Shown: positions 37,142-37,389, numbered from the stretch's first letter. The stretch is 61,516 nucleotides of DNA from Patescibacteria group bacterium (GCA_042570545.1 JBHPGJ010000008.1:1-61516); one strand, 5' to 3'. The notes: a model not told the origin generated them from the letters alone. Program-made: numbers and translations.

Positions 37142-37258
37142 CTATCGCTTTTTCTTTCGGCGCTTCGTTGTCTTTTTCTTAGCAACTTTTTTCTTAGTGG
37201 TCTTTCTCTTCTTTACAGTCTTTTTAACAGTCTTTTTTGCTTTCTTTCTTTTTGCCAT
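37142..37258 (-). CDS. Histone H1-like / protamine-like Lys-rich microprotein (38 aa)
   Basis: MAKRKKAKKTVKKTVKKRKTTKKKVAKKKTTKRRKKKR. Strong SD GGGAGGT about 10 nt upstream, terminator downstream. Below the ORF-track cutoff. Confidence 0.8.
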   Translation of the reverse strand: MAKRKKAKKTVKKTVKKRKTTKKKVAKKKTTKRRKKKR

Positions 37259-37389
37259 TAACTGTGCCACCTCCCTTCTTTTGTTTTTTAGAGTATTTAT
37301 TAATTAGTAGATACATTATACACTATTTTATAAAATAAAAAAACAATCACATTAAAAGAATTGCTATCAACCTATGTTATAATTATTTT

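Follow-up and report, generated by a model that had tools for sequence, protein, structure and literature searches.

The gene described here lies in a window of 61,516 nucleotides, meaning the whole stretch of DNA that was analyzed (JBHPGJ010000008.1:1-61516), which belongs to the genome of a Patescibacteria group bacterium (GCA_042570545.1; 1.0 Mb, 27 contigs, 97% complete). It is read from the minus strand and converges with a pair of plus-strand genes. The following features were found at the locus:

34387-35823 and 35820-37106, plus strand: tandem Wzy_C genes (O-antigen-ligase-like membrane proteins) with a 4-nt overlap
37087-37127, minus strand: predicted intrinsic-terminator hairpin followed by a U-rich run, from strand-specific folding
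37142-37258, minus strand: coding sequence of the microprotein, with the ATG at 37256-37258 and the TAG at 37142-37144
37259-37308, minus strand: predicted A-rich 5′ leader of about 50 nt, essentially unstructured (fold of −3.8 kcal/mol)
37267-37279, minus strand: Shine-Dalgarno (SD) region AGAAGGGAGGUGG, with GGAGGUG 9 nt ahead of the ATG
37315-37320, minus strand: −10 box with the perfect TATAAT hexamer, preceded by a T-rich −35 region that matches poorly
37325-37336, no strand assigned: perfect 12-bp AT palindrome ATTTTATAAAAT in the promoter spacer and −35 region, read from the sequence

The open reading frame comprises 38 codons and its product is MAKRKKAKKTVKKTVKKRKTTKKKVAKKKTTKRRKKKR. 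Translation and residue count bear out the preliminary description of a 38-aa protein with 20 Lys, 5 Arg and no Asp or Glu; the remaining composition includes 6 Thr, 3 Ala and 3 Val. Lys and Arg together account for 66% of the residues and the C-terminal end reads ...RRKKKR. The KKTVKK/KKTTK repeats that had been pointed out earlier could be recognized as well, since KKTV and K-TT-K each occur twice. The protein is devoid of acidic, aromatic and bulky aliphatic (Leu/Ile) residues, and Ala and Val are its only non-polar residues besides Met1. Without the initiator Met, which is expected to be removed, 37 residues remain, with a mass of approximately 4.48 kDa (calculated as 4479.6 Da, compared to 4610.8 Da with Met) and a computed net charge of about +25. 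The remaining two minus-strand frames at the locus contain 2 to 3 stops each. In the whole genome, this is the sole ORF of at least 30 aa with at least 60% Lys and Arg.

Two other assignments of the ORF were rejected. A 42-aa reading from a GTG was discarded because this GTG is located within the SD sequence and the relatives described below keep ATG-GCN. The ORF is also not a divergent rpmH, since the genome has its bL34 gene at C8:11473-11610. Neither the 38-aa nor the 42-aa form was found in a collection of 15 billion proteins, which agrees with the claim that the ORF had been missed by gene calling, and ten relatives of the peptide were absent from this collection, too.

For the analysis of the translation initiation signal, the 3′ end of the genome's own 16S rRNA (...GGAUCACCUCCUUUCU; C7:~508) was used, with GAUCACCUCCUUUCU as the tail available for pairing. 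The duplex between AGAAGGGAGGUGG and this tail is nearly continuous and has an energy of −21.1 kcal/mol. This value is better than that of all 71 window ORFs of at least 100 aa and ranks 2nd of 1,262 in the genome. The test is conservative, as each ORF of at least 100 aa was scored at its best candidate start. The SD sequence is thus the strongest in the window, as had been claimed.

The transcript start, and with it the leader, was deduced from the position of the −10 box. A block of the form AAAATAGT(G/T)TA(T/C)AAT at the promoter is common to three relatives (L003, L013 and L034). In two of these (L013 and L034), TTTTAAAA blocks similar to the palindrome ATTTTATAAAAT are present. A simple consensus scan of the window picked up neither the promoter nor the terminator of the microprotein gene.

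The terminator hairpin overlaps the convergent Wzy_C gene at its 3′ end and stop codon. Its folding energy is −19.1 kcal/mol in the minus-strand RNA (z −4.5; none of 200 shuffles as good), compared to −7.5 kcal/mol (z −1.2) in the plus-strand RNA, which cannot form four G-U pairs that are present in the former. The terminator should therefore be assigned to the microprotein gene rather than to its convergent neighbor, in line with the proposal that the small gene has a terminator of its own. High expression, which had been deduced from such signals, is probable given the top-ranking SD sequence, the TATAAT hexamer and the terminator. Taken by its signals, the locus is very probably a self-contained monocistronic gene with promoter, open leader, SD sequence, ORF and strand-specific terminator.

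The codon usage of the ORF differs from that of the genome. AAG was used for 12 of the 20 Lys codons (60%), compared to 31% genome-wide (p = 0.006). Due to this shift to AAG the A-runs are short, with a longest run of 6 compared to 9.3 expected under genomic codon usage (P = 0.007). Such a shift would be expected if long, slippage-prone poly(A) tracts were selected against.

A first look-alike of the gene, starting with MAKKKVAKKK... and carrying the same SD sequence (L003), was detected by a protein search in 40 relatives of the same class, and five further micro-genes were present among loci retrieved via the neighboring Wzy_C protein. The preliminary description had proposed to search CPR genomes for an SD sequence combined with short MAK(K/R)-rich ORFs. 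This search was carried out with the pattern GGAGG-N4-14-ATGGCN-(ARR)3 in 401 genomes of the class and yielded a whole family. The pattern matched in 97 genomes, compared to 4 hits of the reversed-pattern control. From the retrieved sites with the full GGAGGTG and MA(K/R)3, 68 out of 73 open a reading frame of 13-83 aa in which Lys and Arg make up at least 55%, and none of the 13 retrieved plain GGAGG sites (without TG) opens such an ORF. By hand count, a site of the GGAGGTG type is found in at least about 68 of the 401 genomes (17%), which is a lower bound due to the strict pattern. In other classes of the phylum, 7 of 284 genomes matched, with four clear micro-ORFs (10-33 aa) and one 55-aa hybrid. 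This hybrid (L179; G596:C2:~314572) has the typical start MAKKKKRATKKRKK... and continues into a C-terminal part that contains Cys, CAAKTKSGKACKKYAVGKGKYCESHK. Pfam gave no match for it, and the polylysine may here be joined to a small zinc-binding module.

Based on these results, the family was defined operationally by a GGAGGTG located 2-12 nt before ATG-GCN-(K/R)3 and by a protein of 13-83 aa with at least 55% Lys and Arg, a basic C-terminus, usually Arg, and no acidic, aromatic, His or Cys residues. The window carries this combination of GGAGGTG and ATG-GCN-(K/R)3 at 37244-37274, and length, basic content and C-terminal end of its peptide lie within the protein definition; the terminator is present as well. 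Judged from its sequence, the window gene is one member of a GGAGGTG + MAKKK family that is common in its Patescibacteria-type class.

In the 61 distinct family proteins, Lys accounts for 54%, Ala for 16% and Arg for 11% of the residues. Asp, Glu, aromatic residues, His and Cys are absent from all of them, and Pro or Gly occurs in 32. A hairpin of −8 kcal/mol or better followed by a T-run was identified within 80 nt downstream of 49 of the 65 distinct family genes. The length range of 13 to 83 aa is built up from AKKK/PAKRK-type repeats, and within a single taxonomic family (f16) it already spans 27 to 71 aa. A 94-aa relative (L005/L007/L008; G006:C34) consists almost wholly of KRKVA/KRKPA pentamers. 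Its repeat structure shows a gradation of the family into longer, putatively H1-like repeat proteins.

The gene order of the window, two tandem Wzy_C genes followed by the convergent micro-gene, is identical in L029 and L041. The same order with an Amidase_2 gene inserted between the Wzy_C pair and the micro-gene was found in L013, L014 and L034. This shared order supports a positional orthology of the window gene and these relatives. The order of the Wzy_C pair together with a preceding glycosyltransferase-like gene is conserved in the metagenome contigs L013, L014, L029 and L034. A functional link to the divergent class-I SAM methyltransferase gene (37390-38178) was rejected, as this neighbor is not conserved in any relative examined. 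When close relatives were sought via this methyltransferase, only distant matches from other phyla were obtained (at most 43% identity), and no genus-level relative of the genome was found among the 40 class relatives or by the methyltransferase-based contig search.

Other neighbors recur at the loci of the relatives. In 5 of the 12 relatives inspected, a TIGR00375-family gene of about 415 aa lies tail-to-tail with the micro-gene (L093:1696-2940, L095:142-1416, L110:97-1359, L122:1748-3028 and L111:1693-3025). These neighbors score 170-186 bits, which is below the curated cut-off, and we take them to be endonuclease Q (EndoQ)-like. The genome of the window has its TIGR00375 gene on a separate contig (C1:34945-36141) and shows no such tail-to-tail arrangement. 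In six other loci inspected, the convergent partner encodes a protein with Amidase_2 and N_BRCA1_IG. The micro-gene L100 is located directly upstream of nusG-rplK.

For the analysis of selection, close family pairs of equal length were compared. They differ in 73 synonymous and 29 non-synonymous codons, with a neutral expectation of approximately 19% synonymous changes. The pairs are partly non-independent, and each lineage points in the same direction (e.g., 5:0, 3:0, 6:2 and 7:1). Selection at the protein level is shown by these counts for the family and presumably acts on the window ORF as well. Arg is the last residue encoded by 49 of the 65 genes, including the window gene (codon 37145-37147), with six different codons in use. 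In the 65 distinct ORFs, Arg accounts for 6% of the basic residues in the N-terminal third and for 26% in the C-terminal third. As read from the coding sequences, the C-terminal Arg bias is an ordered feature at the protein level that goes beyond composition. In alignments of the window peptide, five family members reached z-scores of 3.1-3.9 and L029 reached 1.9 relative to 1,000 shuffles of its own. Signals, codon usage and family conservation taken together, we are highly confident that the microprotein gene is real and translated.

An exact DnaA box TTATNCACA was identified 67-167 nt upstream of the ATG in 22 of the 65 distinct relatives (L013, L034, L093, L095, L099, L100, L121, L126, L142-L148, L152, L162 and L167-L171), where about 0.4 would be expected by chance. 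The boxes are located at or just above the promoter. As the inspected loci do not adjoin dnaA or dnaN, the boxes look regulatory and not like parts of an origin. The window gene itself has no exact DnaA box within 300 nt, and its two sites with one mismatch are within chance expectation. One of these overlaps the −10 box and is not significant, so that a DnaA box in the promoter of the window gene was rejected.

Homology searches with the window peptide gave no match in Pfam and NCBIfam at E ≤ 10 and none in the PDB, neither by sequence nor by profile. A word-indexed search of 5.8 billion proteins with the 42-aa reading was empty, and the family profile found nothing among 1.84 billion protein representatives. 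These negative results are weak, as the composition correction of HMMER probably suppresses queries of this kind. The preliminary description had noted a resemblance to H1 tails and chlamydial Hc-type proteins. With respect to Lys-rich repeats of varying number this resemblance holds, and P- and G-containing AKK/PAKK/AAPKRK repeats as well as repeat-driven length changes in the family are likewise reminiscent of H1-like proteins. It does not extend to a Pfam or NCBIfam match at E ≤ 10 to Hc1, Hc2 or linker histones. HC2 (PF07382) did not match the window peptide and reached 17.2 bits with the 94-aa relative, compared to a cut-off of 40. The best HMM matches of this long relative, all sub-threshold, were HC2 and a Burkholderia H1-like protein. 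A statistically supported homology to a DNA-binding family was thus not obtained from the Pfam, NCBIfam, PDB or family-profile searches.

An AF2 model of the microprotein consists of a single continuous helix (pLDDT 88, pTM 0.38) and corresponds to a generic Lys/Ala helix. It may represent a helix that is formed on binding, as in H1 tails or bS22. As a prediction it is uninformative with regard to the candidate targets, since bS22 and eL41 look helical, too.

Lys/Ala/Pro-rich C-terminal tails with AKKA/PAKK-type repeats are found in mycobacterial HupB (MDP1/Hlp), Streptomyces HupS and eukaryotic H1. They are disordered, become ordered on DNA, and mediate non-specific DNA binding and compaction. 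The microprotein is similar in its AKKA/PAKK-type repeats, and by analogy a disorder-to-order transition on DNA and compaction are presumed. In HupB, HupS and H1, however, the tail is fused to a folded domain (HU fold or winged helix), whereas the microprotein stands alone. The two HU proteins encoded in the genome differ from HupB and HupS in having no tail.

The microprotein shares with chlamydial Hc2 (HctB) and Hc1 short repeats that are rich in Lys and Ala and offer hardly any other chemistry, and a length variation driven by repeats. Charge-driven binding and condensation of DNA is a presumed further likeness. The length of Hc2 is 165-237 aa and changes by gain and loss of repeats (PMC2848022), in contrast to 38 aa for the microprotein, which in addition coexists with HU and is not tied to a developmental switch by anything found here. 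The H1-like protein AlgP of Pseudomonas aeruginosa spaces polyphosphate granules (PMC9239181) and likewise combines Lys-rich repeats with the binding of a polyanion, but it is far longer. Neither PPK1 nor PPK2 was found in the genome (97% complete), and therefore polyphosphate is an unlikely target. Full-text literature searches did not reveal any paper that deals with H1-like proteins or Lys-rich microproteins of Patescibacteria/CPR. Relative to published knowledge, the microprotein adds a new miniature variant, one that stands on its own, to the bacterial H1-like or polybasic microproteins.

With a charge of about +25 on 37-38 residues and only Ala and Val as non-polar residues, binding of a polyanion is the only plausible activity. 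The peptide should bind nucleic acid by its charge, as a polycation. In the proposed mechanism, the promoter, the strong SD sequence and the terminator would provide large amounts of the peptide, which would have no fold of its own and would work as a polycation. It would bind a polyanion by charge, probably turn helical on binding, and neutralize or condense the polyanion. The main target would be the chromosomal DNA, on which the peptide would act like a free-standing histone-H1 tail or protamine beside HU. In a third of the relatives, its production might be tied to replication through DnaA.

DNA is favored as the target because of the DnaA boxes in 22 of the 65 relatives and the repeats that resemble those of H1 tails. 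Ultra-small CPR cells contain only tens of ribosomes. With such a number of ribosomes, no other polyanion of the cell would come close to the 1-Mb chromosome in size. The genome carries two ordinary HU genes without tails and a spermidine-synthase-like gene. For this reason the microprotein was rejected as a stand-in for missing HU, other nucleoid proteins or polyamines, and would supplement and not replace the usual neutralizers. On the other hand, Lys-rich tails in this genome are found on translation-related proteins, namely a YbaK-like protein and bL19, and such segments can thus serve RNA binding here. Taking these points together, the whole reading, a strongly expressed free-standing peptide of the H1-tail or protamine type with chromosomal DNA as its main target and a role supplementing HU, appears to us about equally likely to be right or wrong. 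A more far-reaching form, in which an oligolysine of 13-83 residues, produced at or above the level of ribosomal proteins, serves as bulk counter-ion and condenser of the chromosome and is tied to DnaA in many lineages, is put forward tentatively and is rather improbable.

The most serious alternative, which we regard as unlikely but not negligible, is a microprotein bound to the ribosome or rRNA. It would be a functional analogue of bS22, eL41 or mS38 (or bL37, Thx) with a helix in an rRNA pocket and one copy per ribosome. By cryo-EM, the ribosomal protein bS22 of 30-33 aa was seen as a helix with approximately 61% Lys and Arg in the h44/h45 pocket, with eL41 and mS38 as its analogues; annotation had missed it in Borrelia, and the authors expected further bacteria to have it (PMC10618245; PMC12123416). 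The window peptide matches bS22 in size and charge, so that this role agrees equally well with its size and composition, and it shares with the bS22/eL41/mS38 group the predicted single helix, the escape from annotation and the probably strong expression, with an SD strength at or above that of ribosomal-protein genes. Further support comes from the position of L100 at nusG-rplK and from the Lys-rich extensions on bL19 and the YbaK-like protein. The bS22 model NF047430 has no match in the whole genome at E ≤ 10 (control: M. smegmatis bS22, 62.6 bits), so that the pocket could be vacant. At the same time, membership in canonical bS22 was rejected. NF047430 and PF08213 match neither the microprotein nor any other protein of the genome, and an unfiltered phmmer search (--max) with the bS22 proteins of Borrelia, Flavobacterium and Mycobacterium and with eL41 found nothing and did not rank it. 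Smith-Waterman alignments to human eL41 and to bS22 of Bbu, Fjo and Msm gave lower scores than shuffled versions of the peptide (z −1.2 to −1.9), and the His/Asn motif of the type THK...NRHKKK is absent, with no His in any family member. The 6-fold, repeat-driven length range of the micro-gene family and the frequent Pro or Gly are hard to fit into a fixed rRNA pocket, whereas bS22 varies by one residue across the genus Borrelia (PMC10618245). Nor would a ribosomal protein be expected to have a DnaA box at its promoter in a third of the cases. Quite unlikely is a general RNA-directed polycation that acts on tRNA, mRNA or rRNA precursors as chaperone or counter-ion and is neither a ribosome component nor chromatin. 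Such a role would tolerate variable length; binding by charge does not tell DNA from RNA, and the tail on the YbaK-like protein, of the tRNA-editing type, is an example of such a segment on an RNA-handling protein. The DnaA boxes of the relatives point to DNA instead, no gene of RNA metabolism is linked in the window, and the data single out no specific prediction of this alternative.

That the locus is not protein-coding is very unlikely. The ORF would then be a chance product of a purine-rich spacer or part of an RNA element, or the Phe/Leu-rich antisense ORF on the plus strand (37197-37307) would be the actual product. Such a reading would agree with the short length and low complexity of the ORF, with homology searches that gave no significant match and with the mirror-image frame, which is also open. 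It does not agree with the SD sequence, the promoter and the strand-specific terminator, all of which face the minus strand, or with a frame that is conserved with an excess of synonymous changes, a C-terminal Arg preference realized by six codons and a codon choice that avoids A-runs. The antisense ORF was rejected, as it has no SD sequence or other translation signals and as the AAA/AAG changes would be Phe/Leu replacements in its in-register frame. Least probable, to the point of being hardly credible, is a role in sensing lysyl-tRNA, as leader peptide or attenuator, or in organizing polyphosphate granules like AlgP. Lys-rich leader ORFs and H1-like polyphosphate-binding proteins do exist (PMC9239181 for AlgP). 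The terminator, however, directly follows the ORF and is in turn followed by the 3′ end of the convergent gene, so that there is nothing downstream to regulate, and the attenuator was rejected for this reason. The polyphosphate target was rejected because of the missing PPK1 and PPK2.

If the H1-tail-like peptide acts on the chromosome as proposed, it would represent a minimal, domain-less component of bacterial chromatin that escapes both current annotation and tryptic proteomics. It would add an extremely simple new class to the components of the bacterial nucleoid or the ribosome. If made at the level that its signals suggest, it may rank among the most abundant products of these cells. The question bears on how the charge of nucleic acids is neutralized in tiny cells with 1-Mb genomes. 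The gene also reveals a systematic blind spot for short, low-complexity basic proteins that is shared by gene callers, HMM bias filters and tryptic proteomics.

Some further observations concern the two proteins with Lys-rich segments and the surroundings of the gene. The bL19 gene (PF01245, 112 bits) is located in the window at 38727-39140 on the minus strand and encodes an N-terminal extension of about 35 residues that is rich in Lys, Glu and Pro. The second protein, by its appearance YbaK/aminoacyl-tRNA-deacylase-like, is encoded on the minus strand of another contig of the same genome (G000 C3:34653-35273) and has a 24-residue Lys-rich C-terminal tail, RPAKKKVVKKRAKTKPRKSKPKKK. An ORF of about 82 aa without a Pfam match is present in the window at 38273-38528 on the minus strand, with two predicted hydrophobic segments (MKYVIGIIVIAVGFLLIW...). 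It fills the gap between tRNA-Val(TAC) and tRNA-Ala(TGC) in a Leu-Val-Ala tRNA cluster, and its stop codon abuts tRNA-Ala.
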